From positions 536,324 through 600,323 of the forward strand of contig JAUXUT010000149.1 in NCBI GenBank assembly GCA_030680695.1: a DNA stretch of 64,000 bases, given 5' to 3'. This stretch comes from a bacterium. GTDB lineage: Bacteria; Patescibacteriota; Minisyncoccia; Phycocordibacterales; UBA6065. Under the pieces are notes generated by a model. It made no database searches. It had not been told where the DNA came from and saw nothing but the letters and a program-made list of their open reading frames with translations. A program made the translations under genes and the position numbers. Shown here in pieces: positions 11,657 through 56,289 of this stretch (positions are counted from its first letter, which is position 1; each line of letters starts with the position of its first letter).

Positions 11657-11714
11657 CTATGGGCGGGAAATACTGACAACAATAGTGACAATGGCGATAA
11701 TAGCGCAAAGAGGC

Positions 11715-25539: not shown

Positions 25540-26640
25540 TTATCTGTTCATAGGCATCACAAGATACATAAAGGATCGGTCTGTGACACCGTGTATAACA
25601 AGGGGCTTGTTTGCTCCTCCAAGAGAGAGCGAGAGGCTGTCTGCGTCGATGGACTGGAAACAGTCGGCAATGTATCGGTAATTGAAATTGATATCAACGT
25701 CCTGCCCAGTAACACTTGCGTCCATTGAGTTTGTGTATTCCCCAACATCACTGTTCTTTGTTGAAACAACAAATGATTTCTTTGATGGTGTGGCTTTTAT
25801 ATTGACCTGATTGAATTTATCCGAGAAAACATTGGATGTTTTGAGTGAGTCAACAAGGTCTTGTTTAAGTACAATAACCTCGGTTATAAAAGCTTTTGGC
25901 ACTATTTGTTTATAGTCTGGGAACGTGGCGTCAACCACCCTAGACATCAAATACATGTCTTTTGCCTCAAAAGCAATCTGGTTTTTATCAAAAAGGACTT
26001 GTATATCTTCTGTTGAAGTTTCTAGTGATTTTATAATGTCTAAAACATTCTTGGCTGGAATAATAACCGATGGAAAATCAAGTGTGTCTTTCACTTTCAC
26101 CTTCTTTTCTGCAAGACGAAATGAATCTGTTGATACAAAAACTAGATCAGATCCATCTTTGTAGATATACACACTAGCAAGCTCTGGTTTAATGCTTGAT
26201 GTTGATGCGCTATATACAACAGATTTTAGGCCCTTAACAAGGGTTTTTGGGTTTATTTCTATTGTTTTTTGAGATTCAAGCTTTGGAATTGATGGGAAGT
26301 CTTCTGGAGAAAACGTTTTAATAAGAGTTGTGTTGGATGGTGTGGATACCAATGCATTACCATCTTTTGTTTCAAGGGTGATGTTTTTTTCGCGATGAAG
26401 ACCCGAAAGAAGGGAGCTTAGAACAGCGCCATGGAGAGCTATCTCACCTTCTTCAGACACTTTTGCTGGAACAACTATTTCTATGCCGCAATCAAGGTTT
26501 GTTGCGCGTATAGTAAGAGCGCTTTTGGAGGCCTTCATGTGTATACAGGACAATATCGGCAAAGAAAGATTTTTGCCGGTTAACCTATCAGCTTTTGCGA
26601 TCCCCTCTATTAACTTATCTTTTATACACTCGATTTTCAT
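25540..26640 (-). CDS. dnaN: DNA polymerase III beta subunit (sliding clamp)
   Basis: 366 aa; typical three-domain clamp layout beginning MKIECIKDKLIEGI. Confidence 0.9.
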   Translation of the reverse strand: MKIECIKDKLIEGIAKADRLTGKNLSLPILSCIHMKASKSALTIRATNLDCGIEIVVPAKVSEEGEIALHGAVLSSLLSGLHREKNITLETKDGNALVSTPSNTTLIKTFSPEDFPSIPKLESQKTIEINPKTLVKGLKSVVYSASTSSIKPELASVYIYKDGSDLVFVSTDSFRLAEKKVKVKDTLDFPSVIIPAKNVLDIIKSLETSTEDIQVLFDKNQIAFEAKDMYLMSRVVDATFPDYKQIVPKAFITEVIVLKQDLVDSLKTSNVFSDKFNQVNIKATPSKKSFVVSTKNSDVGEYTNSMDASVTGQDVDINFNYRYIADCFQSIDADSLSLSLGGANKPLVIHGVTDRSFMYLVMPMNR

Positions 26641-26872
26641 ATCCCCAGTATATCTTCTATTTTCTTTATAAAACTAAAACTATTCCTATTAAAGGTGTGG
26701 ATATGTGGATAACACACTCAACGGCCTTATATAAACATATAACACCAACCCAGAATCTCAGAACCTGTTGAATAAACTTTGATTTATCCACCACCACTGA
26801 AATGAACACCGAACCAATCCGTCTTATACCCAATCTGTCCCCAACAAACCAACACAGAAAACCACAGGTTAT
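26641..26872. promoter_or_regulatory. candidate oriC (DnaA-box cluster + AT-rich DUE) in dnaA-dnaN spacer
   Basis: TGTGGATAT-TGTGGATAA tandem (one perfect consensus box), TTATCCACC and TTATCTACA boxes, plus an AT-rich stretch (TATCTTCTATTTTCTTTATAAAACTAAAACTATTCCTATTAAA). Confidence 0.6.
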
Positions 26873-28294
26873 CTACATGATAAGAGACCGGATATGATTC
26901 AACTCCTGAAGAAGTACGTGGTTGGACTTTATATCCTCCTTTATTTTCTCGCAAGAGTGTATGACGGTTGTATGGTCACGACCACCAAGCTTTTCACCAA
27001 TCGATGGGTACGAGATATTCATATCTTCACGTAAAAGATACATTATTACTTGGCGTGGTTTAACCACCTCTTTTTTACGTGTTTTTTCGTAAATATGACT
27101 TTCGTTTATGTTATAGAAATCGGAAACAAGTTTCACAATATCTTTAACAGAAATAGATTTTTTTGGTTTAAGACTGTTTTTAAGCAGAGCCTTAATATCT
27201 ATAATGTTTAATTCCCTACCCTTAACCTGCATTTGAATGGCTATGGAATTGATTATTCCCTCCAATTCACGGATATTGCCATCTATACTGTGGGCCAAAA
27301 ACTCAATAATCTCTGGGGTGAGGTTTATGCGGCGTTGGGACATTTTAGCCCGCAAAATAGCAAGCCTAGACTCATAATCTGGTGTAGACACATCAACAAT
27401 CATTCCTGCGTTAAAGCGCGATTTTATACGATCTTCTAACTCAGGAATATGGTTGGGGTGCCTATCAGACGAACAAATAAGCTGCTTGTTGTTCTCATGG
27501 AGAGAATTAAAGAGGTGAAAAAACTCTTCTTGCGACTTCTCTTTACTCGAGAAGAATTGAACATCATCCATAATAAGGACGTCGTATTTTCGATAACGCT
27601 CCTTGAAATGATTCGCCCTCCCGAGCTGCAATGAGTTCATATAATCAACAGCAAACCGCTCGGACGTTACGTAGTACACCTTTTTAGATGGATGGTGTTG
27701 TTTGATGTGATTGCCAACAGCCTGTGTAAGGTGTGTTTTTCCACGTCCTGTATCTCCATAGATAAAGAGTGGGTTGTAAGCAACTCCAGGATTTTTCATA
27801 ACAGCCTGCGCCGCAGCATGGGCGAGCTCGTTAAATGGACCAACCACAAAAGAATCAAAAGTATATTTTGGATTAAGGTTGTCTTCTTTGTTTATATAAA
27901 AGTCTTGCAGAGGCAGTTCGAAAGTCGGGGCAAGTACCTTTTTTGGTTCTTCTGCGGCTTCCTGTTTTTTCTCGTTTATCTTACCAATTACGTATTCTAT
28001 AGCCCTCACATCGTTACCGAAGTCACGGAGGTGTTTGAGTACGGTCTTGTGGAACTTGCTAGAAAGCCAATCTTTGGCGAATACGCTCGGAACCGACAGA
28101 TATACGACACCGTCAGATATTTTGTGAATATGAGTCTCCCTAAACCACATCGTGAAATTTCCTTTCGATACGGTGAGTTCGATCGCCCCAAGCACATTCT
28201 CCCAAAGTTTTTTATTATCTATTGAGGCCACAGGTTTTACTTTTTGATATGAGTAAGTATATAGTGCCGTTTGAATCAGAGAACTTGTGAACAA
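26873..28294 (-). CDS. dnaA: chromosomal replication initiator DnaA
   Basis: 473 aa; AAA+ Walker [11 protein letters not shown], Walker B, C-terminal DnaA-box binding HTH (..[11 protein letters not shown]..). Confidence 0.9.
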
Positions 28295-28835: not shown

Positions 28836-29579
28836 ATGATTTCTTTGTATAACACATATATTTACGAGCCCCTCTATAACGGTCTCATCCTTCTTATTGA
28901 TTACCTACCATTCCTTGATGCGGGAATCATTATTATCATATTCACGATTATCGTCCGCATCATAATATTTCCACTTTCTAAAAAAGCGGCTCGCACCCAG
29001 GTCGTCATGAAGGCTCTAGAGCCGGAGTTGAATGCCCTTAAAGAGCGCCACAAGGACGACAAACAAGGTCAGGCTGTCGCCATCATGGGTTTCTACAAAA
29101 AGAACGGTATAAACCCTTTCTCAAGCATTTTTCTTCTCATAATCCAGCTCCCGATCATCTTTGCACTATACAAAATCTTCTACTCAACCGGACTTTCGGC
29201 TGTGAATGGTGAAATACTGTACTCGTTCGTTGCTATGCCGGCCCAAATAAACACCGCCTTTCTCGGATTGTTCGATGTTACACAAAAGAGCGTTGTTCTC
29301 GCTGTCATCGCCGCCGCCTCACAGTTCCTCCAAATTCATTTTTCCATGCCTAAACCCCCAGCAAAGACCGGAAAAGGTGGTTTTCAAGAGGATTTTGCGC
29401 GCAGCATGCATATGCAGATGAAGTACGTCTTTCCCATCTTCATACTTTTCATCGGATATCACGCAGCTGGTGCACTCGCCATATATTGGACCACAAGCAA
29501 CATCTTTATGATCGCTCAGGAGATATATGTACGCAGGGAGCTTGCCAAAGAAATGGCGCTCAAAGAGAAGAAGGTCTAA
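28836..29579 (+). CDS. yidC: membrane protein insertase YidC (short form)
   Basis: 247 aa polytopic membrane protein following rpmH-rnpA; YidC/Oxa1 conserved core. Confidence 0.85.
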   Translation: MISLYNTYIYEPLYNGLILLIDYLPFLDAGIIIIIFTIIVRIIIFPLSKKAARTQVVMKALEPELNALKERHKDDKQGQAVAIMGFYKKNGINPFSSIFLLIIQLPIIFALYKIFYSTGLSAVNGEILYSFVAMPAQINTAFLGLFDVTQKSVVLAVIAAASQFLQIHFSMPKPPAKTGKGGFQEDFARSMHMQMKYVFPIFILFIGYHAAGALAIYWTTSNIFMIAQEIYVRRELAKEMALKEKKV

Positions 29580-30817
29580 AGACCAAAGCGATAGAGCCAG
29601 AGACTCATATCTTTCTTGTTTGTGAATATGATGTGAGAGTCGTCGTTGCTTACGGAAAGCCTAAACATATCCATTTCTTCTAGGGCATCAAACTGAGGAT
29701 CGAGTATAAAGCCGGTGTCGCCTGTTTTCACATCTATTTTCCAAAGACTGTCACTGAAAGACACACTGCCCTGGTACCAGTCGTCCGGATAGGTTCCTGC
29801 TGGTACCACAATAGGCACCGCACAATAAATAATGTTGGCTTCGGTATTGGCCCAAGCGCATTTATCGGCGAGGGTTGCCACTGAAAGGGCCAGGGTGTTA
29901 CGTGATGTGGTGTCGAAAGACGCGGACGCTATACCCCCACCCTGTGCACCGGACATGAAAACATGACTGCTTGAAGGATTAATGTTTCCATTCAATCCCA
30001 ATATTGATGACATTGCGTTAGTGAAAGTTCCAGTTGCGACGTCGAGAATATATCCATATCCATAAACAACACCACTTGGTTTTGTCGAAAGGAACGCCGA
30101 TTTCGCACCATTTCTTGATATAAGCCATCCGGAAATGTCCGACGATAGAGCAACTCGTTTACCTAATCCGTTTACATTCGTCTCAATCAATACACCGCCT
30201 GTGGTCGTTGGGTCTAGGTAAAGGATTTTTCCTGCCGCAACAGCGATTTCAGATATGCTGGCAGGAAGGAAATATCCCTCGAGGGGAGGAGTTGATGTAG
30301 ATGTTGTGCTGGTTACTGTTGAAAGCACACCGTAGAACGATTGAATAGAAGTTCCGTCTTTGAGGTAACGCATAATAACTTCCCTACCGTTGCTAGACCA
30401 CAGTGCCTCATATATTTGGGGAATAGTCACATTCGATATCTTCTGCTCGCCTGTTTCAAAGACTGGTGATTCATAGATGTGGCCAGTGGCTCGATCAACG
30501 AAACGTACAGAGACGGCTTTAGAGCTAGACGAAACAAACGTTGCACCAGCAGCCGGTTCAGCCCAAAGTTTTCGTAGGTTGGGTAGGTATACAGAGCTGT
30601 CGATGTCTATAATACCTGTACCGCCCGTGTCACCAGTTGAAGTTGCTTGGCCCCCTGTGCCACCCTGTCCACTTGGGAATGGGAATAGACCTTGGTCAGT
30701 CTTATTAATAGACGTCGAAGTCGAGTCCTTGTCATACAGGAAAAGGAACCAACCAAGCGTCGCGAGGGCTGTGATTATAAGGAGTATTATTAAGACAATG
30801 AATGTTTTTCGATACAT
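29576..30817 (-). CDS. hypothetical N-terminally anchored extracytoplasmic protein (last gene of T4SS-like operon)
   Basis: 413 aa; TM anchor then Gly/Thr-rich linker and a large repeat-like beta-rich domain. Confidence 0.4.
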   Translation of the reverse strand: MYRKTFIVLIILLIITALATLGWFLFLYDKDSTSTSINKTDQGLFPFPSGQGGTGGQATSTGDTGGTGIIDIDSSVYLPNLRKLWAEPAAGATFVSSSSKAVSVRFVDRATGHIYESPVFETGEQKISNVTIPQIYEALWSSNGREVIMRYLKDGTSIQSFYGVLSTVTSTTSTSTPPLEGYFLPASISEIAVAAGKILYLDPTTTGGVLIETNVNGLGKRVALSSDISGWLISRNGAKSAFLSTKPSGVVYGYGYILDVATGTFTNAMSSILGLNGNINPSSSHVFMSGAQGGGIASASFDTTSRNTLALSVATLADKCAWANTEANIIYCAVPIVVPAGTYPDDWYQGSVSFSDSLWKIDVKTGDTGFILDPQFDALEEMDMFRLSVSNDDSHIIFTNKKDMSLWLYRFGL

Positions 30818-30821
30818 GGGT

Positions 30822-31844
30822 TTATAGGCAACTGCTACAAATTGTTTTTATTCTTTCTGCCGTTTCTTTACGGAAGGTGTCGGCCTCAGTACGTTTGCCG
30901 AAACTTTCTAATCGTGCAGCTGTTTCCTCACCATTCCTTTTCATATGTTCAGCGATTTGGGTGGTATTTACATATTGACCGGTCGATATTTTTTCTCGGT
31001 GTTTATTTAACTGCCAGAGCTGGCCGGTTTTTTGTTGGAATATGTAACGGTCTATATCATTATCTTCGATTGCTTTTTTGTACCGGTCGTCATTGGTGAG
31101 TTCATATGCCGCCACGAGTGATTTTCTTTTTTCATCATAGGCATTCATGCCACTTTGGATTGCCTGATCGACGTTGATCTTAGTTTTAGAGTCCCAATTT
31201 AAGATAGAGCTCTGCATTCTTTCTATGTTTGCTTCTGCAAGGGCTTTGGTTCGAATCGTTGATTCCTTAACTATCAATTCTGCTCGCTCTGTTTTTAACC
31301 GTAATAAGGATGACGAATCTGTGGTGGAGGCAATCTCGGCAGATGCTATTTGTGCGTCATAAGCAGCCATCAGCTCCTTAAGTTCACGTGAGGTTCTCTG
31401 TGCGTCACGAAGCGTTTTTATAGCAGAATCAAGATTTTTTTGCGCAGCAACAAGACCCTGAAGCCTACCCGATCCCCCAGGAAGTCGAAGATTGAAATTA
31501 ACCAGGTCTTTGTTGATAGTTTGCAGAATAATGAATGAGGCAAGGATGACACCAAGTCCAAGGAAGGCATTAGTTATCCTTTCTTTGGCCGCAGATTTGC
31601 TACCAATCGATTCTTGGTACATGTATTCGAAACCGCCCCAGATAATCATGATGACGGCGATCACCGCCCCGATACCGATGGCGAGCCCATACACACCGCT
31701 TATGACTTTTATTGGGTCTGTTACTGTGCCCTCCTTGAACACTCCTGGTAACGTGGTGAGAGGTTTAAAGTCCTCTGCATACACAACACCAGCTGAGATG
31801 GCGAATGTTGCAAGTACCGACAAAACTAGAGCTTTCTTATTCAT
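30822..31844 (-). CDS. pilin-like two-TM protein (TrbC/VirB2-like topology) with C-terminal coiled-coil domain
   Basis: Signal peptide (..AISAGVVYA/ED), then two hydrophobic helices (ISGVYGLAIGIGAVIAVIMIIWGG; FLGLGVILASFIILQTI) as in T4SS pilins, then ~230 aa predicted coiled coil. Confidence 0.35.
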   Translation of the reverse strand: MNKKALVLSVLATFAISAGVVYAEDFKPLTTLPGVFKEGTVTDPIKVISGVYGLAIGIGAVIAVIMIIWGGFEYMYQESIGSKSAAKERITNAFLGLGVILASFIILQTINKDLVNFNLRLPGGSGRLQGLVAAQKNLDSAIKTLRDAQRTSRELKELMAAYDAQIASAEIASTTDSSSLLRLKTERAELIVKESTIRTKALAEANIERMQSSILNWDSKTKINVDQAIQSGMNAYDEKRKSLVAAYELTNDDRYKKAIEDNDIDRYIFQQKTGQLWQLNKHREKISTGQYVNTTQIAEHMKRNGEETAARLESFGKRTEADTFRKETAERIKTICSSCL

Positions 31845-32880
31845 ACCTGATTATTATCGCACTGTTTGCACCCTGCAGAAGTTTTTGGGAGTTCTGTATC
31901 GTGACACCGATTGATGATGCACCCGCTTGCCCTGTTTTTCGCAAGATAACACCACTTCGGTTCTGGAAACTTGGTACGGTCTGACCGTTTAGCTTCCATG
32001 AGTACGATAGTGCAGCACTATTTCTTACAGGAACCGAGAAAAAATAAGGTTCAGCAACAATTTCAACCTCATCGTTCACCAGATTAACAGAACGCAGCAA
32101 AGATTTTTCATAAAGCGTTCCATACAAGCCACTATTCTCGTAAAATACGATTTTCGGCACAATTGGGCTTATGGTCACACTCCTCCTTGCAACGATGTTG
32201 TCGCGAGGAGCGGACACTTCGACCATAATGTCCTCACCAGGACGCAGGTAGCTCGTCTGGGACGTGATAAAAGTGTTCTTACCGTACCCAGATGCGTTTG
32301 CCTGGACCTCGCCGTTCTTACTCCAAGAATATATGAGTTCTTTCGGGTTGATTCTTTTACCAGAGAAATCAACGAATTCTGGTAGTGCGATGACTTTGAA
32401 TGCTCCGTTGTATGAATGAAGAGCCTTACCTTTATAGAAAGGTGGTGTATATGTATCGCTTTCCCATACCAAGGCGACATCAGCTGGGCGTATAACAATA
32501 CTTGTATTGAATGTTCCTGTGCCCACGGTAACGACCGAGACATGGATGGTGCTCATTGACCCAACGCCGCCCGCCCTAGCCGACAATGATTTGAGGCCGA
32601 CGCCACGCTGAACTTCTTTACCATCGATGGACCAAACAACAAGGGCCGAATCAAGGCCCATACTGTAGCTCTGTAGGCGTACATCGAACAACCCGTTTGG
32701 CTGAGGTACTTCAGGTATAAGAGATAGCGTAAGTGGATCAGATATACCTGGTATGGTTTGGGCAGACGCCGAAGATGGCGCGATGATTCCAAAGGCCCAG
32801 GTCAGGGCAAGCGAAGCAATTGTACAGGCTATCGCGAGGGTTATGCGAGGCATACCCTTTAATAATAACACAGGCGACAA
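31837..32880 (-). CDS. hypothetical secreted protein (T4SS-like operon)
   Basis: 347 aa with signal peptide; beta-rich; no family recognised. Confidence 0.4.
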   Translation of the reverse strand: MSPVLLLKGMPRITLAIACTIASLALTWAFGIIAPSSASAQTIPGISDPLTLSLIPEVPQPNGLFDVRLQSYSMGLDSALVVWSIDGKEVQRGVGLKSLSARAGGVGSMSTIHVSVVTVGTGTFNTSIVIRPADVALVWESDTYTPPFYKGKALHSYNGAFKVIALPEFVDFSGKRINPKELIYSWSKNGEVQANASGYGKNTFITSQTSYLRPGEDIMVEVSAPRDNIVARRSVTISPIVPKIVFYENSGLYGTLYEKSLLRSVNLVNDEVEIVAEPYFFSVPVRNSAALSYSWKLNGQTVPSFQNRSGVILRKTGQAGASSIGVTIQNSQKLLQGANSAIIIRYE

Positions 32881-32883
32881 GAC

Positions 32884-34683
32884 TTATTGCGATAGTCTTT
32901 TAGCTTCCTTGATAGCTAGTATCTGTGAAGGGTCGGATGTTATGATTTGGTCTTCGGTATACGAGGCAATGATCTTTATAGCCACGTGTTTAAGGCCAAC
33001 AAAGAATATTCCCTCCCCCACATCTGATTCGAGTAGAAGGTATTTTTCCTCATCAGTAAGATTGAAGACCTGTTGGAGCTTGTCTATAGACGACGGGGAC
33101 TGTTTAAGGAGCACCTGTATGGATGAGTTGGTTATAATCGGCAGTCCATAAGGTGATTTTAAGAAGTCGTCGACATCTTGGGTGATTGTTGCAAGTCCAA
33201 GGAAGTGCTTTCTTCCTCTTTTTGCAAGGCCAAGAAGGAACGAAGCGGTGTCTTCGGATTTCATCATCCACCACGCCTCGTCGATGACAAGGAGGCGTTT
33301 TTTAAGGTTTTTCATGACCGCAGTCTGGATGTATCGCATGACGATGTACATTGCAACTGGTTTGAGGTCGTCTTCCATGTCTCGGAGCGAGAAGACAATG
33401 AACTTCGAGTTGATATCAACGTTAGTTGGTCTGTTGATAAAGCCGGACCATGTTCCCTTGGTGTATTTGGTGAGGCGTTGGACGAGCGATTCCCCACCTT
33501 CCATGCCCGTCAGAACCAGTTCAAAGTCGGAAAGAAGTGGTGCCTGAGCATTGCTGAAGTCGGAATCTGGGGTGATATCTTTTAACGCGTATGTTTCAGT
33601 GATAGCACGGTCAATGATCGCATCTTCTTCGGGGGTGAGGCCACCCATCATGATACGAAAGAGACCGACAAGGTTTATGATGTTTGATCGTAGAACGTCC
33701 GCAGGCGCCTCGTCTTCACGTGGGGTCGGCAGGTCAAACGGATTGATGTGGTGTTCAGAGTTTAGGGATATGTTGAAGTATTTTCCTCCCGTTGCCTCTG
33801 ATAGGAACTCATATTCCTTTTCTGGGTCGATGACAATGACTTCGGTGTCGAACATGAGGGTTCGAAGGATTTCTAGTTTGATCGAATAAGACTTTCCAGA
33901 TCCAGACTTGGCGAAAGTAATCGAGTTGTAGTTTTCAAGGCTGAATCGGTCGAAGAGCACGAGCGACGAATTGTGACGGTTCACACCGTAAAGTATGCCT
34001 TTGTCGGAGGTAAGGTCGAACGAGATGAACGGGAACAGGCTTGAAAGAGGGCTAGAATTAAGCTTGGAATGGACCATGAGCTCGTCCTTGGCAATCGGGA
34101 GGTTGGATTTGTATCCCTGCTCCTGTTGGAAGAGGGCCGGCTTTACATAGACAAGTTTTGATTCAAGCACCGATTTAATTTCGGACTCGGTCTTGTCGAG
34201 TTCGGCCTCTGAGTCAGCATATATTGTGATGTAAACACCGACATCAAAAAGTTTTTCCTGAGCTTGTTGGAGTTGATCGCGGAGCTGTTCCAGATCTTGA
34301 TATGCGGTGTCGAGCATCGGATCGCGTACAAGACCCTTGCTTTCACGTATAGATATCTGGCTTTGTACCTCGGCGACCTTTTTCTGGAACTGACGCAGAA
34401 CGCGTGCGGTTTCGACCGGATGGACAAATATCGAGATGTTGAAGACTTTGTCGAGATTGATGATAGGGGCGAACCAACTTTCGGTGAGGAATCGTGGGTA
34501 CGAGATTACGAAGAATGATCGTACAATTTTGTCACCCAGGTTCAATTCGCGTGGTGTGACCTTGAGTGCCGAAGGAGCAATGACGTCTTTCAGTTCAAGT
34601 ACGCCAGCCTCGTAGATTTCTTGTGGCAACACCGGGGCGATGTTCACCTTGTCCTTCTTTTTGAATATATCGAAAAGTCCCAT
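32884..34683 (-). CDS. VirB4/TraE/Orf16-family conjugal-transfer ATPase, C-terminal ATPase part
   Basis: 599 aa; Walker A FAKSGSGKSY, Walker B LLVIDEAWWMM; collinear with Tn916 Orf16-like VirB4 from the DFIAPS region onward. Confidence 0.8.
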   Translation of the reverse strand: MGLFDIFKKKDKVNIAPVLPQEIYEAGVLELKDVIAPSALKVTPRELNLGDKIVRSFFVISYPRFLTESWFAPIINLDKVFNISIFVHPVETARVLRQFQKKVAEVQSQISIRESKGLVRDPMLDTAYQDLEQLRDQLQQAQEKLFDVGVYITIYADSEAELDKTESEIKSVLESKLVYVKPALFQQEQGYKSNLPIAKDELMVHSKLNSSPLSSLFPFISFDLTSDKGILYGVNRHNSSLVLFDRFSLENYNSITFAKSGSGKSYSIKLEILRTLMFDTEVIVIDPEKEYEFLSEATGGKYFNISLNSEHHINPFDLPTPREDEAPADVLRSNIINLVGLFRIMMGGLTPEEDAIIDRAITETYALKDITPDSDFSNAQAPLLSDFELVLTGMEGGESLVQRLTKYTKGTWSGFINRPTNVDINSKFIVFSLRDMEDDLKPVAMYIVMRYIQTAVMKNLKKRLLVIDEAWWMMKSEDTASFLLGLAKRGRKHFLGLATITQDVDDFLKSPYGLPIITNSSIQVLLKQSPSSIDKLQQVFNLTDEEKYLLLESDVGEGIFFVGLKHVAIKIIASYTEDQIITSDPSQILAIKEAKRLSQ

Positions 34684-34702
34684 GGAAGTTTATTGTAATA
34701 CG

Positions 34703-35338
34703 TTATGAAAGTGGTATTGGCTTCTCTGTATCACCAGGATTGAATATCTTATAGAAGAGCTCGACGATTTCTTCCGTTCCAAGTTCGACTGATCTAACAC
34801 CGCAACGCACAAGGCCCTGGGCCACAACCCCAACACGCTGCTCGAGCTGGCTTCGATGTTCCTCGAATTGGGCAAGACGGTCTTCTGCGCCCTGGGCCTG
34901 GGTTTTCTTTTTGCCGAGGACGCTCGAAATACCACCTGTCGTTATAACGGCCGGACTGTATGGCACGACCACAAAGAATGTTTTGGTCATGATGTTTGAA
35001 TTCTCAGTGAATTTCTTTATGAACTCTATGTATTCACGGGTCTGCATTTTCATGATGTCGGAAACCTGTTCTTTGAGGCGTCCTTCAAGTAACGCTATGT
35101 ATGGCCGTATGTCTAACTTTCTCGATTGGATGAAGATTTGCACCGAAAAGTCGAGTGAGTTGAGGAAGTTCTGGAACTGATAGATGATTGACTGCTGTTC
35201 TTCGGCCGATTTAAGGGCGAAGTTAAGAGATGAGGCCATAACAATCGACCTCAGGGAATTATCCTTGAGGATAACCACCCCCTGCCTTATTTCCTTGATG
35301 GGGACGAATTCTTGAGTTGTCTTTGCGTTGATGGCCAT
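34703..35338 (-). CDS. VirB4-family ATPase, N-terminal domain encoded as a separate ORF (split gene or frameshift)
   Basis: 211 aa; FVPIKEIRQGVVILKDNSLRSIVMASSLNFALKSAEEQQSII..FLNSLDFSVQIF matches the N-terminal domain of Gram-positive VirB4 homologues; ends in TAA 16 nt before the ATG of the ATPase ORF, in a different frame. Confidence 0.7.
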   Translation of the reverse strand: MAINAKTTQEFVPIKEIRQGVVILKDNSLRSIVMASSLNFALKSAEEQQSIIYQFQNFLNSLDFSVQIFIQSRKLDIRPYIALLEGRLKEQVSDIMKMQTREYIEFIKKFTENSNIMTKTFFVVVPYSPAVITTGGISSVLGKKKTQAQGAEDRLAQFEEHRSQLEQRVGVVAQGLVRCGVRSVELGTEEIVELFYKIFNPGDTEKPIPLS

Positions 35339-35362
35339 GATGCGTCTCGACCATTATACGTC

Positions 35363-35800
35363 CTAAAAGGTTTTCTTGCCTGCCTGGTTTTGGGCCGGAT
35401 TCTGGCTTTGTTTGATGTCGAGTGACCAGGTTAGGTCTTTGAGCTTGCTGTCAGAGAGTTTTGGCACATAGAAATCAGGAGCCACAGTCGGGGCCTCTTC
35501 CCTTGTTTCGATCGGCTTGTTTACCTTCTTCCAAATGTACAATTTGTCTCCAAACGCGTATGTAAATGCAGATTCCACCACATTTATGAACGGTTTGTTG
35601 TTAATCTTGTAAAAAGCCAAAGCCGCAGCGAAAGCCATTATCGGAAGAATGAAAATGACGCTTATGAAAAGGTTGCCGATGAGGGTATATACAACAAAAG
35701 AAAGGCCTGCCCCGCCGACGAGGTATATGAACTGTTTTATCGTGAGGGGGCCAAATATCTTGTCTTCAACCTCTATGAATTGGGGTACCTGGAATCTCAT
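35363..35800 (-). CDS. PrgI/VirB3-like small membrane protein
   Basis: 145 aa; N-terminus MRFQVPQFIEVEDKIFGPLTIKQFIYLVGG followed by two TM helices, matching the PrgI-family signature; immediately upstream of VirB4. Confidence 0.6.
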   Translation of the reverse strand: MRFQVPQFIEVEDKIFGPLTIKQFIYLVGGAGLSFVVYTLIGNLFISVIFILPIMAFAAALAFYKINNKPFINVVESAFTYAFGDKLYIWKKVNKPIETREEAPTVAPDFYVPKLSDSKLKDLTWSLDIKQSQNPAQNQAGKKTF

Positions 35801-35804
35801 GAGT

Positions 35805-36236
35805 TTATTGGATTGGTTCTCGATATGGGTCCACGGTCGTTTTCTTTGTTGGCATGTTTACCGGCTCAGTTAACTTACCTTCGATGAAGTCGTGGGCGAT
35901 GGCATGGTCATCAGCCGGTGGTGTCATCACAGGATGAACAGCCGGCGTCGGATTTTCTATTTCGGCGAGGATGTCTTCTTTAGCCATACTGTTGACTCTT
36001 TGTGAACTTTCAACAACTGATTTTCTAGCCGGAATAAATATTTCAACATTTATATCGGTGGTAAGGTCGATAGCGTCTTCAGCTGATAGGTTAAGATGGT
36101 CCTCGATTATCGAGATGAAGTCATCACTCTGGCTTTGACCAGATATAACTTTATCTACTTCCTCAGCCAGCACGCCGAGTTGATCGATGTGTAGTCCGAA
36201 TTTATCACCAATTTTTTTTAAGGTTGGGTTATCCAT
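35805..36236 (-). CDS. hypothetical acidic protein (T4SS-like operon)
   Basis: 143 aa; no family recognised. Confidence 0.35.
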   Translation of the reverse strand: MDNPTLKKIGDKFGLHIDQLGVLAEEVDKVISGQSQSDDFISIIEDHLNLSAEDAIDLTTDINVEIFIPARKSVVESSQRVNSMAKEDILAEIENPTPAVHPVMTPPADDHAIAHDFIEGKLTEPVNMPTKKTTVDPYREPIQ

Positions 36237-36238
36237 GC

Positions 36239-38605
36239 TTAGGTATATTGCTCATCATCATCTTCTGCGTCTGCATCTGGGCCAGCAGGTGTTGTTGGGG
36301 TAGCTGATTTTGGTTCCCTTCCCCCCCTTTTACCCTTTTTACCCTTTTGTTTGTTGCCTTCGATTGAATCAAATTCATCCTGTTCTTTTTTTAGCTCAGC
36401 TTTCTTTTTTTGAAGTTCAGCTGCAAGACCATCTTTACCGTCTGTTCGAGGCCTAAAACCCTTATCAACGACTTGCTTGCCAGAGGCATCAAGTACAGGT
36501 TTTCCGTTGTCCGTTCTCGGCTTTTCATAGTATTCATGACCGATTCTGTCCTTTCTGATTATATCTCCAATAGAGTCGGTGTCGCCCTTCTCTGATTTTA
36601 ACATCGCTTGTTTTTTGGTCACCACATCAGTCATACCCATAACCCTTCCAATCCTTTCATCTTGGTGTTTTTTGTACTTTGAGTAGCTATTTATTTTCTT
36701 TGCCTCGCTCCTTATTTTATCTTTCTCGGCCTGCGTCATCTTTCCTGTTTCTCTGTCGACTTGTCCCATTAGGGCGGCGGTTTCTTCTGGTGATTCGGCA
36801 GAATTAGCTTTGTGTAGCAATGCGGCTACCTTATTTTTCTTCATCATGCTCTCAAGTTCATTCTGCATACGTATTTTTTCTAGCCTAAGTGCCGCATTCA
36901 TCTTATCCACATCATCTGTCTTGGCGGCATTTTCAAGGTGGGCCATCGCGATTTGCTCGGCAATGATCTGGTTGCTTATACCAGTACTTGCTTTCTTAGC
37001 ATCCTCAACATTAGCCTTTCTGTACGCGGCATGTGCGTTATCAGTTATATCTTCGAAGGCGCTCGAATATCCCTTACCGGCGACGCCGGCGTTCATTGCT
37101 TTGTAAATAGAATCATCCTGGCGCATAGCTGCATAGCGGGCCCTGTTCTCTTCACCAGCCTTTCCTTTACCGAGATTCTTTTCTGCCCACTCCTTCTCTT
37201 TTTCCTTGAAATCTTCGACACCTGATTTAAATCCACCCTCCTCAATTTTACCAACCTTAGTTGCATCAAGTTTCACACCGGCTATATCTAGCTTTCCTCC
37301 GAGGGCACCCATCATGCTGCCGCCCGCTGTTGTTTTGCGTGCGTCAAAACTCGAAGATGCCATTTTGTTGGTCGCAGCAAGCTGCATTCTTCCCGCAAAG
37401 CCCCTCATACCGCCTTCGGCCGCTTTAGCCTGCAGGGCACCCATAGACTCTTTGTCTTGGGTGTAATTGAACGCTCTGCGTCCAATGGTTTGTCTTCCGA
37501 ATGCACCACCAAGACCAGCTATACCTCCGACGGCGATGCCGGTCGCATTCTTTGCTATGTTTGCGATAGAGCTACCGATCTCACCACTATTATCTTTGGC
37601 CACCTGAAGAGCTTTGAGCAGCATCATAATTATGATGATGAATATGACGTAGTTGACCGGTGTGAATTCTGTGCTCGCGGCGTCATTACCGAAGACAAGT
37701 GCGTCGAATCGATCGACCATGAAAAGGGTTATGTATAGGAATAGGAAGAACATTGGCAGCATCATGAGCTGCTTAAGCATCTCGTCCCACCACTTCCCTG
37801 CTTGTTTACTATAATCACCTAATGAGAAGAAAGGTCCAGTGAACCCTATCGGTGCGGTAATGAGGAGTATCATGAACGCTACAATACGGCCGACAATAAG
37901 GAAGACCATATGGAAGAATACATATATCGCAACACAGATTAGAGCAAATAGAAGTACACCTTGGGTGAAGGACTGCAAAGAGAAAGACTTCATGCTAAAG
38001 AAATCACTAAGGCTTGTCCCTGGCCCACCTGAAGTTTGCGTGAGTTTTTCCATCTGGAGTGTTGCACGTACCGACGAGCTCATACTCGATCCATCGCCGA
38101 GATTTTTTATGCCTTGCACGAGCCACGCGGTGACAACGTTGCTTGTGTCGATCATTATTTTCGTAAAGAAAAGGCTGAAGTTGAGGAGCAGTGCTGCCAT
38201 AAGAACACCAGCGATGGTTCTTTTCACCGAAGCGAGGTTTCCGATATTGAGAATAGTTTTTATACCCTCATAGATAAGTATGAAGATAAAGATCATGTTC
38301 GCGAGATCGCGTACAATGCTCCAGGTGATTCCTATGGCTTCTGAATTATAAAAACTCGGGTCGAGTGATAGTGAAACAGCGGTGTCGATAATGAGACCGA
38401 GGAGTTGCAAAATCAAGCCGCCAATTGGTATGAGCACCCACCAGAATATTTTTCCGATAAGTCCATAGAAAATATCAATACCACCAGTTAGGAGGCTCAG
38501 GGCAGCATCGGCAACTTGGGCGTTAGCCTGATGTGGCGCGAAGAAAACACCCGCAGCGACAAGGATGGTCGTTATAAGGAAAAATTGAGAGACGAGCTTT
38601 CTCAT
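36239..38605 (-). CDS. VirB6/TrbL-like polytopic membrane protein with long charged coiled-coil C-terminal domain
   Basis: 788 aa; signal peptide, then at least six hydrophobic helices in the first ~380 aa; C-terminal ~380 aa K/E/A-rich coiled coil. Confidence 0.5.
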   Translation of the reverse strand: MRKLVSQFFLITTILVAAGVFFAPHQANAQVADAALSLLTGGIDIFYGLIGKIFWWVLIPIGGLILQLLGLIIDTAVSLSLDPSFYNSEAIGITWSIVRDLANMIFIFILIYEGIKTILNIGNLASVKRTIAGVLMAALLLNFSLFFTKIMIDTSNVVTAWLVQGIKNLGDGSSMSSSVRATLQMEKLTQTSGGPGTSLSDFFSMKSFSLQSFTQGVLLFALICVAIYVFFHMVFLIVGRIVAFMILLITAPIGFTGPFFSLGDYSKQAGKWWDEMLKQLMMLPMFFLFLYITLFMVDRFDALVFGNDAASTEFTPVNYVIFIIIIMMLLKALQVAKDNSGEIGSSIANIAKNATGIAVGGIAGLGGAFGRQTIGRRAFNYTQDKESMGALQAKAAEGGMRGFAGRMQLAATNKMASSSFDARKTTAGGSMMGALGGKLDIAGVKLDATKVGKIEEGGFKSGVEDFKEKEKEWAEKNLGKGKAGEENRARYAAMRQDDSIYKAMNAGVAGKGYSSAFEDITDNAHAAYRKANVEDAKKASTGISNQIIAEQIAMAHLENAAKTDDVDKMNAALRLEKIRMQNELESMMKKNKVAALLHKANSAESPEETAALMGQVDRETGKMTQAEKDKIRSEAKKINSYSKYKKHQDERIGRVMGMTDVVTKKQAMLKSEKGDTDSIGDIIRKDRIGHEYYEKPRTDNGKPVLDASGKQVVDKGFRPRTDGKDGLAAELQKKKAELKKEQDEFDSIEGNKQKGKKGKRGGREPKSATPTTPAGPDADAEDDDEQYT

Positions 38606-38700
38606 CCCTAATATTGTACTACAAAATTAAAGTCTGGTGTAAGTAGTCTACTTGGCCTGTCTAAAAAACGGTCAATGAGCGTCCCAACCCATATCGATCA

Positions 38701-41220
38701 TTATCGAATTAATACGGGAATTGGTTTAATATTCTGTGAAGAGAAATCAAAAGCGATACCAGATAGACCACCACCACCATAAGAGCTGGTTTGAGCGACT
38801 AAGCCACTGCCCCCAGGTTGAACCTGAACAACAGCCGGCACGGTGAACTTAATCGTTCCCACCGAAAGCACCGCACCATCAGATCCTTTGGCGGTTACAC
38901 GTGTTGTGTACGACGCACCAGGCGGCAGGGTTTTGAGTTGGCCAGTGAGAATGATTCTAGAATCATGGCTTGGCCCAGTCGAGACACCAGTGAAAGTTAT
39001 ACTGCTATTTGATGCTGGTTGGAAATTACGCGTTACACCATTCTGCTTCATGCTGATGGTGATTTGAGAAAATGCATCATCAAATGTTACTGGCTGTCCC
39101 GTTGATGATTCGAATGCGACCTCGAGAGATCCGATACTCCTATCTGCGGGTGAACTCACGCTTATTTCAGCACCGAACACATCACCGGATTTGGCGGTAC
39201 CGGTTTGGCTGGCCACAGTCACTGGGCTATTTGGATCGTTATTGGTCGAAGAAGATTGGCTTGGAGAGTCAGGTTTCTGGTTCGTGGCCGTTCCAGTTGT
39301 TGATGCCGCCCCCATGACTTCTATAACCTCAACCTCTGCGAGTTCGAGTGGTCTGTAACACGAAGCATTTCCACTATAACTTTGGTAATGCTCGTTACAT
39401 GACTTTACCGCAGCGTTTTTTTGTATTCTAATTGCGGATGCATTCTGATTTACTGGAACAACGATTGGGTTATTTGTTTGACCACCGTCAATTACCGAAC
39501 TCAACCAGACTTCCCCAGCAGAAGTCTTGGCCGATATGGTGAACATGCCCAGGCTGTCGGCCCCAGATTTATCTGACACTTTCCAGATTCGAATTTCTTG
39601 TATTTTTCTGGTCTGTCCAAGGTTCACTTCCCACCACGGATTTGCATCGTCCTCGTATGTTGATGATCCTTTCACATACTGATTGGTTTGTGTAATTCCA
39701 TCTACGGCGCCACCAGGATTCGTGCCCGATGATTGGCTTGTTGGTTTAAGTAATGCGGCGTTTGCCGTGGCGTTGCCAGAACTAAACGCGCTTACAAGGG
39801 ACGCCTGTTGTTGGCTTTGTTGGTTGGTACTTGCAGTTATACCCGCATTCGCCGCTTCGTTTATGTTCCGTATGTTCGGATTAGATTCGCTGGTGAAAAG
39901 ACCTTGTGCCTCGCCTATGCTACCGATTCGGTAATCATCGAGCTCTGTGCCAGCACCGATATCAGTAGATGCTGGAAGCGCTGTTCCATAGTATTGGGCG
40001 CGATAACGATCGAGATACGTCGGACCGCTCGTCGAACGTTTTTTAGACAGGCCAAGTAGGCCGCTTGCACCTGAAATGGCTTTCTGCGCAATTTGGTTGA
40101 GGGTTGCGGCGATAACATGGTCTATTTCGGTCGCAACAGCAGACTGAATTTCAGATTGACCAAGCACAGAGCTCAATTTATCAGCAATGATTTTACCAGG
40201 AGTTTTTGTGGTCATCTTACCGGGCTTACATTGAGGCTTGGAGTCAAAATTGCTGGTAAACTCAGATAATGTTGCGGGGCTGGCATTGAAACTAGTTTCA
40301 GACGCAAGATAGTTTGTTAGGTTCTCATCCATAATCTGTTGTGATGTAATTGCAACAGAGAACGGATTGATGGACGCAGTACCTACTGAAGGATTACTGA
40401 TGTTTGCATTTGAAGCCGCAACCGTACGAGCCCGCGCCTCGCCCGCGCTCTCATATTCATCGCATGTGTCGAAGTTCAAAAATCCCGATCCAATTGTGAT
40501 TTTTTTCTCTTGTATATTTTTTGCACGCCCCGCTCTTTGGGCTAGTTCTGATTCCGCGACTAGGTAAGCACCATATACATTGTTTGTTGGCCTGGCGGTC
40601 AGACTTAGCCAATTATCCCAACCGGCACCACCGTTGTTTTGTACAAAGTTTTCGATATTGTCACCGATTTTGCTAAGGGTACAAGTAATTCTATCTTGAA
40701 ACGGGCGGCTGTATTTGAGGGCGAGCTCAAGGCGAATTTTGAAAGAAAAGTCTTTACAAAGGAAGCCGAGCTCCGTTCCTTCGATAAATGTACCCATTAC
40801 CTGGTCAGCAGCATTAAGGAGGGTTCCCTCAAAATCGGTGACAAACAAAGGTTTACCCTCAAAGCCGCTGTTCACCCAGTTCACAACACTTGCACCGATA
40901 TTACGTATAAGCGCAATAACAAGGGCTTGCCCAAGAGGTTTTAATATACACGTAGTAAGCGTATTTGTATTTACACTTCCCCCTGAGAAGATGTCGCCCA
41001 AGAATCGGCCAACGTTGGCAGATGGAACGCCCACAGCTTCTTGGACTGAACCAGGGGCTTGTGTGGCGGCGGATGTGGTAAAGGCCGCGGCGCATGCGGC
41101 AACTGTTCCAGACTGGGCCGATACCTGGCGGGGCTGAGCAAGAAGGCCTGCTGGGACCATCAAAGACGCGATGATTGCGAAACAGATTACGTGCGCTGAT
41201 AGATTTTTCATGAAGCTCAT
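38701..41220 (-). CDS. large secreted protein with F5/8 type C (discoidin) domain
   Basis: 839 aa; signal peptide; discoidin-domain signature ...GAVDGITQTN..SSTYEDDANPWWEVNLGQTRKIQEIRIW...; Ig-like C-terminal region. Confidence 0.55.
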   Translation of the reverse strand: MSFMKNLSAHVICFAIIASLMVPAGLLAQPRQVSAQSGTVAACAAAFTTSAATQAPGSVQEAVGVPSANVGRFLGDIFSGGSVNTNTLTTCILKPLGQALVIALIRNIGASVVNWVNSGFEGKPLFVTDFEGTLLNAADQVMGTFIEGTELGFLCKDFSFKIRLELALKYSRPFQDRITCTLSKIGDNIENFVQNNGGAGWDNWLSLTARPTNNVYGAYLVAESELAQRAGRAKNIQEKKITIGSGFLNFDTCDEYESAGEARARTVAASNANISNPSVGTASINPFSVAITSQQIMDENLTNYLASETSFNASPATLSEFTSNFDSKPQCKPGKMTTKTPGKIIADKLSSVLGQSEIQSAVATEIDHVIAATLNQIAQKAISGASGLLGLSKKRSTSGPTYLDRYRAQYYGTALPASTDIGAGTELDDYRIGSIGEAQGLFTSESNPNIRNINEAANAGITASTNQQSQQQASLVSAFSSGNATANAALLKPTSQSSGTNPGGAVDGITQTNQYVKGSSTYEDDANPWWEVNLGQTRKIQEIRIWKVSDKSGADSLGMFTISAKTSAGEVWLSSVIDGGQTNNPIVVPVNQNASAIRIQKNAAVKSCNEHYQSYSGNASCYRPLELAEVEVIEVMGAASTTGTATNQKPDSPSQSSSTNNDPNSPVTVASQTGTAKSGDVFGAEISVSSPADRSIGSLEVAFESSTGQPVTFDDAFSQITISMKQNGVTRNFQPASNSSITFTGVSTGPSHDSRIILTGQLKTLPPGASYTTRVTAKGSDGAVLSVGTIKFTVPAVVQVQPGGSGLVAQTSSYGGGGLSGIAFDFSSQNIKPIPVLIR

Positions 41221-43779: not shown

Positions 43780-44559
43780 TTATTGCGCGAGCTTTATCCA
43801 GATATCGAGAGACACATCTTCTGCACGTGCGTTATCGTCGAGGCCGAGCGCCTTGAACTTCTGGGCAACTTGGTCTTTAGGCATGACCGAGGTGAGATTA
43901 CCGGCGAGCTTTTTTCGTTTCTGGGCGAAGCCGGCCTTTACGGTCTCAAAGAAACGGGACTCATCTGTCGTGTTCGCAAATGGCATTTTGATGTCTGACA
44001 ATTTGAGTACCGCAGAATCTACATTCGGTATTGGGAAAAAGTTTCCACGTGATACGTTCATGACAAGTGACGGTGTTGCATAGACTTTCACCGACAGGGA
44101 CAGGATGCTTTCCTTGCCGTCGCGGGCGATGATACGGTCCGCTACTTCTTTTTGAACCATAAGGATCATAGAGTCCGGCTTGTCATCGATCGACAGGAAC
44201 TGACGGATAATCTGACCGGTGATGTAATACGGGATATTCGCGATTACCTTGTAATGGCCCTTGATACGTATCGATACAGCATCCATAGATTCGAGCACAT
44301 CGCCGTGAATGAGAACCAAATCGCCGCGAGAAATTTCTGGTTTAAAACGCGTCGCGAGAAGAGGTATAAGACGATCGTCTTTTTCGACGGCAATGACGTG
44401 CGCACCAGCCCTGAGGAGAGCCGCAGTAAGGACGCCTTTACCTGGACCGATTTCAATAACCTGCTCGCCCGGAGTGATTTCTCCAGCCATGACAATTCCA
44501 CCCACGACACGTTCGGATATGAGGAAATTTTGCCCGAGGGACTTTTTTGCGAATGCCAT
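43780..44559 (-). CDS. rsmA: 16S rRNA (adenine1518/1519-N6)-dimethyltransferase
   Basis: 259 aa; KSLGQNFL start, SAM-binding VIEIGPGKGVLT. Confidence 0.9.
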   Translation of the reverse strand: MAFAKKSLGQNFLISERVVGGIVMAGEITPGEQVIEIGPGKGVLTAALLRAGAHVIAVEKDDRLIPLLATRFKPEISRGDLVLIHGDVLESMDAVSIRIKGHYKVIANIPYYITGQIIRQFLSIDDKPDSMILMVQKEVADRIIARDGKESILSLSVKVYATPSLVMNVSRGNFFPIPNVDSAVLKLSDIKMPFANTTDESRFFETVKAGFAQKRKKLAGNLTSVMPKDQVAQKFKALGLDDNARAEDVSLDIWIKLAQ

Positions 44560-56101: not shown

Positions 56102-56173
56102 GCTCCCGTGGTGAAATGGATATCACAACGGTCTTCGGAACCGTCGTTGGGGGTTCGAATCCCTCCGGGAGCA
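56102..56173 (+). tRNA. tRNA-Arg (anticodon TCG), no encoded CCA
   Basis: Cloverleaf: acceptor GCTCCCG/CGGGAGC, anticodon stem-loop ACGGT-CTTCGGA-ACCGT, T-arm GGGGG-TTCGAAT-CCCTC. Confidence 0.8.
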
Positions 56174-56218: not shown

Positions 56219-56289
56219 TTGTCCCTATGCGGGTATCGTTTAGTGGTAGGACACGTCCTTGCCAAGGATGAGGTGAGAGTTCGATTCTC
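56219..56289 (+). tRNA. tRNA-Gly (anticodon GCC), no encoded CCA
   Basis: Acceptor GCGGGTA/TACCCGC, anticodon stem-loop CGTCC-TTGCCAA-GGATG, T-arm GAGAG-TTCGATT-CTCTC. Confidence 0.85.

Follow-up and report, generated by a model that had tools for sequence, protein, structure and literature searches.

Is a virB4 gene that is encoded as two open reading frames (ORFs) in different frames a broken gene, an error in the sequence, or simply two genes? [quoted passage not shown] Our results indicate that the locus is very probably the normal two-gene VirB4 of most Patescibacteria (candidate phyla radiation), in a chromosomal and origin-proximal T4SS operon of the monoderm type. Ultrasmall Patescibacteria typically have this two-gene form, whose description dates from 2025; the architecture is thus already known, and this locus is an ordinary member. 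The features on which the analysis is based are listed in Table 1.

Table 1. Positions in the window of the two virB4 ORFs, their junction and motifs, and neighbouring genes.
Feature	Position	Strand	Details and source
Tightly packed operon with split VirB4	29576..41220	minus	ORF list, Pfam
PrgI-family (VirB3-like) membrane protein	35363..35800	minus	145 aa; PF12666, E 1.2e-11, 45.4 bits (cutoff 27)
ORF1	34703..35338	minus	211 aa, ending ...GDTEKPIPLS; TAA stop at 34705-34703 (ORF list)
Intergenic spacer, ORF1 TAA to ORF2 ATG	34684..34702	minus	19 nt, CGTATTACAATAAACTTCC; +1 frame shift
ORF2	32884..34683	minus	599 aa, N-terminus MGLFDIFKKK (ORF list)
Walker A, AKSGSGKS	33889..33912	minus	ORF2 residues 258-265, intact (motif search)
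Walker B, LLVIDE	33277..33294	minus	ORF2 residues 464-469, intact (motif search)
Protein with T4SS pilin domain (VirB2-like)	30822..31844	minus	340 aa; PF18895 T4SS_pilin, 31.1 bits (cutoff 26.6)
dnaA	26873-28294	minus	Pfam Bac_DnaA, DnaA_N, Bac_DnaA_C
dnaN	25540-26640	minus	Pfam DNA_pol3_beta
ksgA (RrnaAD)	43780-44559		Also fits the context reported in PMC12102498

The two adjacent ORFs in different frames, as first described, are borne out by the coordinates and the sequence; their placement on the minus strand was absent from that description. The start of ORF1 and the start of ORF2 are 655 nt apart, so that ORF2 lies in the +1 frame relative to ORF1. The letters quoted earlier for the spacer were correct, but its length had been given as 16 nt, three fewer than we count. 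No Shine-Dalgarno-like motif is evident in the spacer, a promoter and terminator scan found no promoter-like or terminator-like sites in it, and an Rfam scan of the junction returned no match and no structured RNA. Across the whole operon, the counts of promoter and terminator sites did not exceed those in shuffled sequences. The DVIAPSALKV segment was found by motif search at residues 33-42 of ORF2, which places the split point about 32 residues upstream of the motif.

Judged by its sequence, ORF2 is a VirB4-family ATPase without the first ~185-200 residues. It matches NF045971, the model of the CD1110-family VirB4, over positions 185-733 of 752 (E 3.9e-111; 372.6 bits vs a curated cutoff of 325), and among Pfam families it matches P-loop_TraG (94.6 bits vs a cutoff of 25.8), AAA_10 and DUF87, with TraC_F_IV (23.4 bits, cutoff 28.1) and CagE_TrbE_VirB (16.6 bits, cutoff 21) remaining below threshold. 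In the PDB, ORF2 matches the VirB4 C-terminal domain 4AG5 (E 5e-37) and also TrwK. The N-terminal domain of TrwK comprises about 400 residues. As the ATPase C-terminal domain, by comparison with 4AG5, begins at about residue 227 of ORF2, the chain retains the second half of the canonical N-terminal domain (about residues 1-225), followed by the RecA-like C-terminal domain (about residues 227-583). The complete N-terminal domain is absent from this chain, which begins at about position 185 of NF045971. ORF2 is the 'short' VirB4 of the TrsD-containing subclass, because the missing N-terminal segment is encoded by ORF1.

ORF1 is most probably a TrsD-like, or 'TraC-like' (PF26593), protein, and its counterpart in VirB4 is the N-terminal domain over its first ~200 residues. 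With the NCBIfam models, it aligns to positions 2-118 of NF045971 (E 2.3e-5), 101-233 of VirB4_plasma (E 1.5e-11) and 4-162 of TIGR00929 (E 8e-4), thereby covering the N-terminal ~120-170 positions of VirB4 models, and ORF2 is the colinear continuation on VirB4_plasma and TIGR00929 as well. The alignment with the TrsD/TraD model NF041427 (E 4.7e-6) is partial, residues 6-125 of ORF1 matching positions 13-142 of 201, and its 26.6 bits lie far under the curated cutoff of 200. NCBI labels the small protein 'hypothetical', and a search of the local Pfam-A copy gave no hit to ORF1; the PF26593 label comes from precomputed annotation, which assigns it to the identical protein P0001 and to all 120 listed homologues. 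Searches of PDB chain sequences with ORF1 and with its 70-sequence profile gave nothing relevant. When the AlphaFold model of ORF1 (pLDDT 85.9) was compared with PDB folds, the top 14 matches were all TrwK/VirB4 chains (probability 1.0, TMq 0.44-0.58); the next match had an E value of 0.27, and no other was significant. A link between ORF1 and TrwK is thus suggested through the predicted fold only, at modest TM scores.

Naturally fused relatives contain both halves in one chain. In P0181, a fused relative of 797 aa, ORF1 corresponds to residues 5-214 (47% identity) and ORF2 to residues 225-793 (56% identity), so the two halves are colinear with a short linker between them. The multiple alignment used contains naturally fused proteins only (A4); an alignment made with MAFFT from fused, ORF1-type and ORF2-type proteins together (A3) was discarded, as the fragments were stretched over the whole length. 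Over its full length, the P0181 model can be aligned with TrwK/VirB4 (810-860 columns, E 1e-24, TM about 0.52), and its pLDDT of 70.5 and pTM of 0.51 represent moderate confidence, so that it gives little information on how the halves pack. About 118 of the 120 best-matching clusters (90% identity) are proteins of 775-807 aa from Colwellbacteria-type Paceibacteria. The sequence sets fetched for the analysis were selected on similarity and represent two tight clades. The fused form is carried by this Colwellbacteria-type clade, which is not mentioned in the main text of the 2025 survey of Patescibacteria (PMC12102498), and is a small addition to the known picture. P0289, a protein of 600 aa from the fused clade, was considered as an independent second split and rejected, because a stretch of N in its contig cuts the protein short. 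Taken together, P0181 and the colinear matches to NF045971, VirB4_plasma and TIGR00929 uphold, far beyond chance, the earlier statement that a full-length VirB4 is covered by the pair of ORFs. The accompanying label, N-terminal domain plus ATPase, was slightly off, ORF1 being the first half of the N-terminal domain only.

The sequence-only reading had proposed a comparison with orthologous clusters in related genomes. Among 80 GTDB species-representative loci fetched, the split, with a stop and a restart, occurs at the same place in all 80, at identities of 64-85% for ORF1 and 68-91% for ORF2, and the adjacency of the two ORFs is kept throughout. At least 8000 ORF1 homologues were scored, the best 120 of which are all stand-alone proteins of 206-222 aa (75-100% identity); some homologues have long low-complexity C-terminal tails. 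The C-terminus of ORF1, FNPGDTEKPIPL-x-stop, is invariant in 16 homologues, and most relatives share MG[IL]FDF as the N-terminus of ORF2. The spacer ranges from -4 to 496 nt and is 5 nt or shorter in 42 of the 80 relatives, the frame offsets 0, 1 and 2 are found in 17, 37 and 26 of them, and ORF1 ends in TAA, TAG or TGA. At least four relatives (L013, L023, L037 and L066) have an unrelated gene between the halves, of the 23S-rRNA-IVS four-helix-bundle type; PF05635 was confirmed in L013 and L066, and the inserted genes of L023 and L037, which resemble these in sequence, probably belong to the same type. Because synonymous sites are saturated (pS 0.74-0.94), dN/dS is not computable, and selection is given as pN vs pS. 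With pN at 0.11-0.19 for ORF1 and 0.06-0.10 for ORF2, far below pS, the two halves evolve under strong purifying selection. A naturally split VirB4, as one of the three original answers had it, is what the 80 split loci, the variable spacers and frames and these pN values support.

In the window, ORF1 is a stand-alone small gene with the PrgI gene 24 nt upstream and the short virB4 immediately downstream. The operon encodes, in order, proteins of 839, 788 and 143 aa, PrgI, ORF1, ORF2, a protein of 347 aa, the pilin-like protein (second gene downstream of ORF2) and a protein of 413 aa, at successive spacings of 95, 2, 4, 24, 19, 3, -8 and 4 nt. Pfam finds an F5/8 type C domain in the 839-aa protein and no match in the 788-aa protein. 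Just downstream lie dnaA and dnaN, which give the operon an origin-proximal position on the chromosome, and a setting of virB4 beside dnaA, dnaN and ksgA has been reported for Patescibacteria (PMC12102498). The genes examined included neither a relaxase nor a coupling protein.

The two other answers left by the sequence-only reading are refuted. A recent frameshift or nonsense mutation that broke a continuous virB4 and left a pseudo-system has as its sole support the two adjacent ORFs in different frames that sum to a full-length VirB4, and it is extremely improbable, given that a stop and a restart are shared by all 80 species-level relatives, that the ORF1 C-terminus, the ORF2 N-terminus and the Walker motifs are conserved or intact, that purifying selection is strong on each half and synonymous sites are saturated, and that unrelated genes stand between the halves in some relatives. 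We give equally little credence to a sequencing or assembly indel near 34684-34702 that splits one ORF artificially. The source is indeed a metagenome-assembled genome (P0001 is from a 649-kb contig of it), but the split recurs, with differing spacers, in assemblies made independently in many studies and on many sequencing platforms; an in-frame TAA follows the conserved last residue, and the ATG opens the conserved MG[IL]FDF. A true assembly artefact looks otherwise, as in the case of P0289 with its run of N.

Two further explanations accept the junction as real. Programmed recoding, through stop bypass with a +1 frameshift or through readthrough, could yield some fused full-length VirB4, and it is true that fused forms of ~790 aa are functional in a related clade and that 17 of the 80 relatives have same-frame halves with a stop and a short spacer between them. 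Recoding sites keep their sequence and frame from one relative to the next. The junction considered here varies in both: its spacer measures -4 to 496 nt, every frame offset and all three stop codons occur, and inserted genes are found. No Rfam element or structured RNA is present, and the window would require both a bypass of TAA and a +1 shift within 19 nt. Recoding is therefore very improbable. Somewhat less remote, and still unlikely, is that ORF1 is an independent accessory subunit which shares ancestry with the VirB4 N-terminus and serves as an adaptor or regulator at another site of the machine, without completing the N-terminal domain of ORF2. It would agree with TrsD having no assigned function and standing mostly apart from virB4 in Gracilibacteria (PMC12102498), with the long C-terminal tails of some homologues, and with the tolerance of gene insertions between the halves. 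Against it, ORF1 supplies exactly the segment missing from ORF2, nothing being overlapped or duplicated, in a sizeable related clade the two are joined colinearly via a short linker, the fused model aligns with TrwK end to end, and the order PrgI, ORF1, ORF2 is conserved.

In the favoured two-gene explanation, one operon transcript would give two separate polypeptides. The first gene encodes a cytoplasmic TrsD-like protein of 211 aa, whose counterpart is the opening ~200 residues of the canonical VirB4 N-terminal domain, and the second gene the remainder of VirB4, namely the second half of that domain and the Walker A/B ATPase domain. We infer that the small protein binds non-covalently to the ATPase chain at its N-terminal part, rebuilding the complete N-terminal domain. 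In R388, VirB3 wraps around this domain and VirB4 dimerisation goes through it (PMC9259494), and in the window the VirB3-like PrgI is encoded immediately upstream. The very short spacers of most relatives (TAAnATG, TAAnnnnATG or an ATGA overlap) suggest coupled translation, with the two chains made near 1:1; with the 19-nt spacer of the window, ORF2 would need its own initiation or re-initiation. More tentatively, and with considerable doubt, the first ~200 residues of VirB4 may be regarded as a subunit that can be separated, with a gene boundary that has shifted at least twice: in most Patescibacteria and one subclass of the plasmid systems of Bacillota it stands detached, and in the Colwellbacteria-type clade it was rejoined or never separated. 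The free subunit might then have a role of its own, e.g. in timing the docking of the ATPase on PrgI.

The implications concern mainly annotation, as pipelines and readers are prone to flag such a junction as a frameshifted virB4. A naive reading would make the secretion system a pseudo-system, when it has in fact a standard, selected architecture. Since both forms, fused and split, are present among sister lineages, they also offer natural constructs for probing the detached N-terminal module, which is a modest point.

Among known systems, the VirB3-VirB4 fusions of some diderm systems resemble this locus in that gene boundaries around VirB3 and the VirB4 N-terminal module are plastic. They go in the opposite direction, fusion instead of fission, and at another boundary; PrgI is a separate gene in the window, and the survey of Patescibacteria detected none of these fusions (PMC12102498). 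The full-length VirB4 proteins (TrwK of R388, PDB 7O41/8RTD; the CD1110 family; P0181) share with ORF1 and ORF2 the domain content and order, the fold and the Walker A/B motifs, whereas the chain of the window is cut within its N-terminal domain, at a point corresponding to residues ~214 to ~225 of P0181, so that the enzyme would have to assemble from two polypeptides.

A further comparison is with TrsD/TrsE (MPF_FATA subclass) of pGO1, a staphylococcal plasmid to which PMC12102498 refers as the conjugative prototype. The term TrsD does not occur in the main text of Guglielmini et al. 2014 (PMC4027160), and the homology of TrsD with the VirB4 N-terminus thus comes from PMC12102498, where it is described as remote, together with our own profile and fold matches. 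Plasmids of Bacillota (Geobacillus pGspE55-1 and B. thuringiensis BTB_502p) have the same order of PrgI, small protein and DUF87 ATPase. The N-terminal ~190 aa of their small proteins match ORF1 at 26-31% identity (E down to 1e-19), and their ATPases, of 636-661 aa, are without the N-terminal segment, like ORF2. Their small proteins are longer than ORF1 (318-328 aa), with a 14-nt overlap with the ATPase gene, and, unlike the system in the window, these are plasmid-borne; the two plasmids examined are non-mobilizable (MOB-suite).

The closest likeness is with the T4SS of Patescibacteria themselves. Quinonero-Coronel et al. 2025 described TrsD homologues beside virB4 and found TrsD to be the most abundant T4SS component in these bacteria, with 2,272 homologues, of which 1,664 adjoin virB4; in Gracilibacteria most of them are not adjacent to virB4 (PMC12102498). 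In Ca. Southlakia epibionticum, a TrsD homologue is listed as essential (PMC12102498), and the secretion system was essential for epibiotic growth in the sole Patescibacterium genetically tested (PMC10633639). As in Ca. Southlakia epibionticum ML1 (SEML1_0006-0019; Wang et al. 2023, PMC10633639) and other Patescibacteria, the window has a small TrsD-like gene immediately followed by a short virB4, a cluster that includes PrgI/VirB3-like genes and genes for VirB2-like pilins, with neither relaxase nor coupling protein among the examined genes, and a chromosomal position beside dnaA, dnaN and ksgA. There is no substantive difference, and the window represents one more locus of the Paceibacteria type.

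Two conserved genes with complementary domain content, ORF1 (a TrsD-like or 'TraC-like' protein, PF26593 by precomputed annotation of an identical protein) and ORF2 (an ATPase), lie inside the T4SS operon of the window (Table). As the sequence-only reading had noted, they are adjacent and in different frames, ORF2 being in the +1 frame because the two starts are 655 nt apart; the spacer string it reported was correct, with an actual length of 19 nt and not 16. ORF2 residues 33-42 are DVIAPSALKV. Scans for promoter-like sites, terminator-like sites and Rfam families found none at the junction, and no Shine-Dalgarno motif is evident in the window's 19-nt spacer.

Table. Coordinates of features in the window and in related loci (L numbers)
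Feature	Sequence	Position	Strand	Remarks
ORF1	window	35338..34703	minus	211 aa, C-terminal end ...FNPGDTEKPIPLS, TAA at 34705-34703
ORF2	window	34683..32884	minus	599 aa, N-terminus MGLFDIFKKK
ORF1-ORF2 spacer	window	34684-34702	minus	19 nt, CGTATTACAATAAACTTCC
T4SS operon	window	41220..29576	minus	spacings 95, 2, 4, 24, 19, 3, -8, 4 nt
F5/8 type C protein	window	38701-41220		839 aa
Protein upstream of PrgI	window	36239-38605		788 aa
dnaA and dnaN	window	25540-28294		
ksgA	window	43780-44559		
tRNA gene	window	11594-11666	minus	Rfam, gathering threshold
tRNA gene	window	56102-56173	plus	Rfam, gathering threshold
tRNA gene	window	56229-56299	plus	Rfam, gathering threshold
tRNA gene	window	57144-57216	plus	Rfam, gathering threshold
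tRNA gene	window	58002-58072	plus	Rfam, gathering threshold
Gene between trsD-like gene and virB4	L013	5634-6047		114-134 aa, PF05635 confirmed
Gene between trsD-like gene and virB4	L023	5637-6060		114-134 aa
Gene between trsD-like gene and virB4	L037	4309-4756		114-134 aa
Gene between trsD-like gene and virB4	L066	5634-6100		114-134 aa, PF05635 confirmed
Counterpart of that gene	L036	5622-6120		degraded in appearance
Intein in virB4	L032	6441-8438		
Intein in virB4	L044	6436-8433		
Fused TrsD-like module and VirB4 gene	L081	544-2937		
P0289	L084	1213-1667		run of N

ORF1 had no match in the local Pfam copy and no sequence-level relative in the PDB. Among NCBIfam models, it matched positions 101-233 of VirB4_plasma (E 1.5e-11), 2-118 of the CD1110 VirB4 model (E 2.3e-5) and 4-162 of TIGR00929 (E 8e-4), and, well under the curated cutoff, the TrsD/TraD small conjugation protein model (E 4.7e-6). 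The best 14 PDB folds matching its AlphaFold model (70-sequence alignment, pLDDT 85.9) are all TrwK/VirB4 chains of R388 (probability 1.0, TMq 0.44-0.58), and the next match has an E of 0.27. The sequence of ORF2 identifies it as a VirB4-family ATPase, with matches to Pfam P-loop_TraG, AAA_10 and DUF87, weak sub-threshold ones to TraC_F_IV and the CagE_TrbE_VirB N-domain, in each case at the C-terminal end of the model, and intact Walker A (AKSGSGKS, residues 258-265) and Walker B (LLVIDE, 464-469) motifs. It scores 372.6 bits (cutoff 325) against NF045971, the NCBIfam CD1110-family VirB4, at model positions 185-733 only; in the PDB, 4AG5 (a crystallised VirB4 C-terminal domain) matches residues 227-583 (E 5e-37) and TrwK residues 253-549. 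Given these model-position, PDB and fold matches, ORF1 is the first half of the VirB4 N-terminal domain, and ORF2 its second half plus the ATPase domain. The earlier label, N-terminal domain plus ATPase, was thus near, with the boundary misplaced, as the cut falls inside the N-terminal domain.

An exhaustive ORF1 search of representatives gave 2447 matches; 149 of the top 150 are short (146-443 aa), and the other, P0181, is a 797-aa single chain whose gene follows that of PrgI, close to dnaA, in a Patescibacteria MAG. Its residues 5-214 match ORF1 and residues 225-793 match ORF2 (56% identity), and the cut sits in a short linker (P0181 ...NPATIEKRGEVIGRQGMGGVASIEDVVAP... versus window ...NPGDTEKPIPLS* / MGLFDIFKKKDKVNIAPVLPQEIYEAGVLELKDVIAP...). 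A model of the fused protein, built from 56 P0181-type proteins (pLDDT 70.5, pTM 0.51), aligns end-to-end with full-length TrwK over 810-860 columns (E 1e-24, TM about 0.52). From this alignment and the colinear match, ORF1 and ORF2 together amount to one complete VirB4. When P0181 was the query, 118 of the 120 best clusters were 775-807-aa proteins with PF26593 and P-loop domains, many labelled Ca. Colwellbacteria; VirB4 is split in the window's clade and one protein of that size in a Colwellbacteria-type clade of Paceibacteria. Since the fused clade is nested, by similarity, in a far wider diversity of split forms, and the Bacillota outgroup loci are split too, we infer that secondary fusion is more parsimonious than retained ancestry.

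The sequence-only reading had proposed a naturally split VirB4, a recent frameshift leaving a pseudo-system, or a sequencing error, and a comparison with related genomes. In 80 loci of species-representative genomes, whose ORF1 homologues share 64-85% identity with the window's, we parsed every junction. The ORF1 homologue stops in 80/80 (TAA 62, TAG 13, TGA 5), followed each time by an ORF2 homologue of about 600 aa, mostly starting MG[IL]FDF. The shortest spacer is -4 nt (an ATGA overlap) and the longest 496 nt, with 42 of the 80 at 5 nt or less (commonest lengths 4, 5 and 1), and frame offsets 0/1/2 occur 17, 37 and 26 times. Nonsynonymous differences per site between relatives and window are 0.11-0.19 in ORF1 and 0.06-0.10 in ORF2, with synonymous sites saturated (0.74-0.94). 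This pattern of stops, spacers and selection is that expected, at sequence level, of two separately translated, selected genes.

A change of frame between the ORFs is what a recent frameshift or an assembly indel would leave, but both are incompatible with the same stop and restart in all relatives and with selection on both ORFs; only the natural split survives. A conserved recoding site is likewise incompatible with the range of spacers, the three frame offsets and the complete genes found inside four spacers. In a separate ORF1 search (at least 8000 candidates scored, all E <= 0.001), the best 120 ORF1 matches are all stand-alone proteins of 206-222 aa (75-100% identity) from Paceibacterota/Parcubacteria MAGs, one of them identical and on a 649-kb contig; an alignment of 16 of these 120 shows no variation in the C-terminus, FNPGDTEKPI-P-L-x, as far as the stop. 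A genuine artefact, for contrast, is P0289 (600 aa, fused clade), rejected as a short VirB4 given that a stretch of Ns in the contig deletes the middle of the N-terminal module.

Two of the wedged genes (L013, L066) belong to the 23S-rRNA-intervening-sequence (four-helix-bundle) family, PF05635, which seems to insert at intergenic sites; L036 carries a degraded-looking counterpart. Separately, L032 and L044 hold an intein of about 660 aa with a LAGLIDADG homing-endonuclease domain, at the equivalent of ORF2 position ~265 (Walker A GKS), giving VirB4 ORFs of 1264-1266 aa. Some TrsD-like homologues (P0153, P0169, P0209) have low-complexity C-terminal tails of 100-230 aa, rich in Pro/Ala/Gln/Thr.

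The operon is tightly packed, with a PrgI/VirB3-like gene (PF12666) directly upstream of ORF1 and a T4SS pilin-domain protein downstream. Further upstream, the 788-aa protein, which has no Pfam match, is by position a candidate VirB6-like component, and the 839-aa protein preceding it, a possible adhesin of this system, carries a carbohydrate-binding domain of F5/8 type C (discoidin). The Rfam scan of the window at gathering threshold yielded nothing besides five tRNA genes. Because dnaA and dnaN directly follow the operon and ksgA is nearby, it adjoins the presumed replication origin, a location also described in many Patescibacteria. In the R388 structure, the VirB4 N-terminal domain is wrapped by VirB3, and VirB4 dimerises through the same domain (PMC9259494). 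By analogy, the probable partner of the TrsD-like protein is the N-terminal part of the ATPase chain, whose membrane-proximal platform it would probably form together with PrgI. Most relatives have very short spacers, which suggests that translation of the two genes is coupled.

In the one Patescibacterium examined genetically, the T4SS locus proved essential to growth as an epibiont (Wang et al. 2023, PMC10633639). In the survey of Patescibacteria T4SS by Quinonero-Coronel et al. 2025 (PMC12102498), virB4 is commonly near dnaA, dnaN and ksgA, relaxases are mostly absent, a TrsD homologue is among the essential genes listed for Ca. Southlakia epibionticum ML1, and TrsD outside Patescibacteria is confined to the pGO1 subclass of the MPF_FATA class. 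The fused Colwellbacteria-type clade is a small addition to that survey, as its main text does not mention such proteins. Bacillota plasmids share the window's order of PrgI, small protein and short DUF87 ATPase; their small proteins have 318-328 aa, the N-terminal ~190 aa being 26-31% identical to ORF1. As its layout agrees with both the survey and these plasmid loci, the window locus is an ordinary member of an already described architecture.
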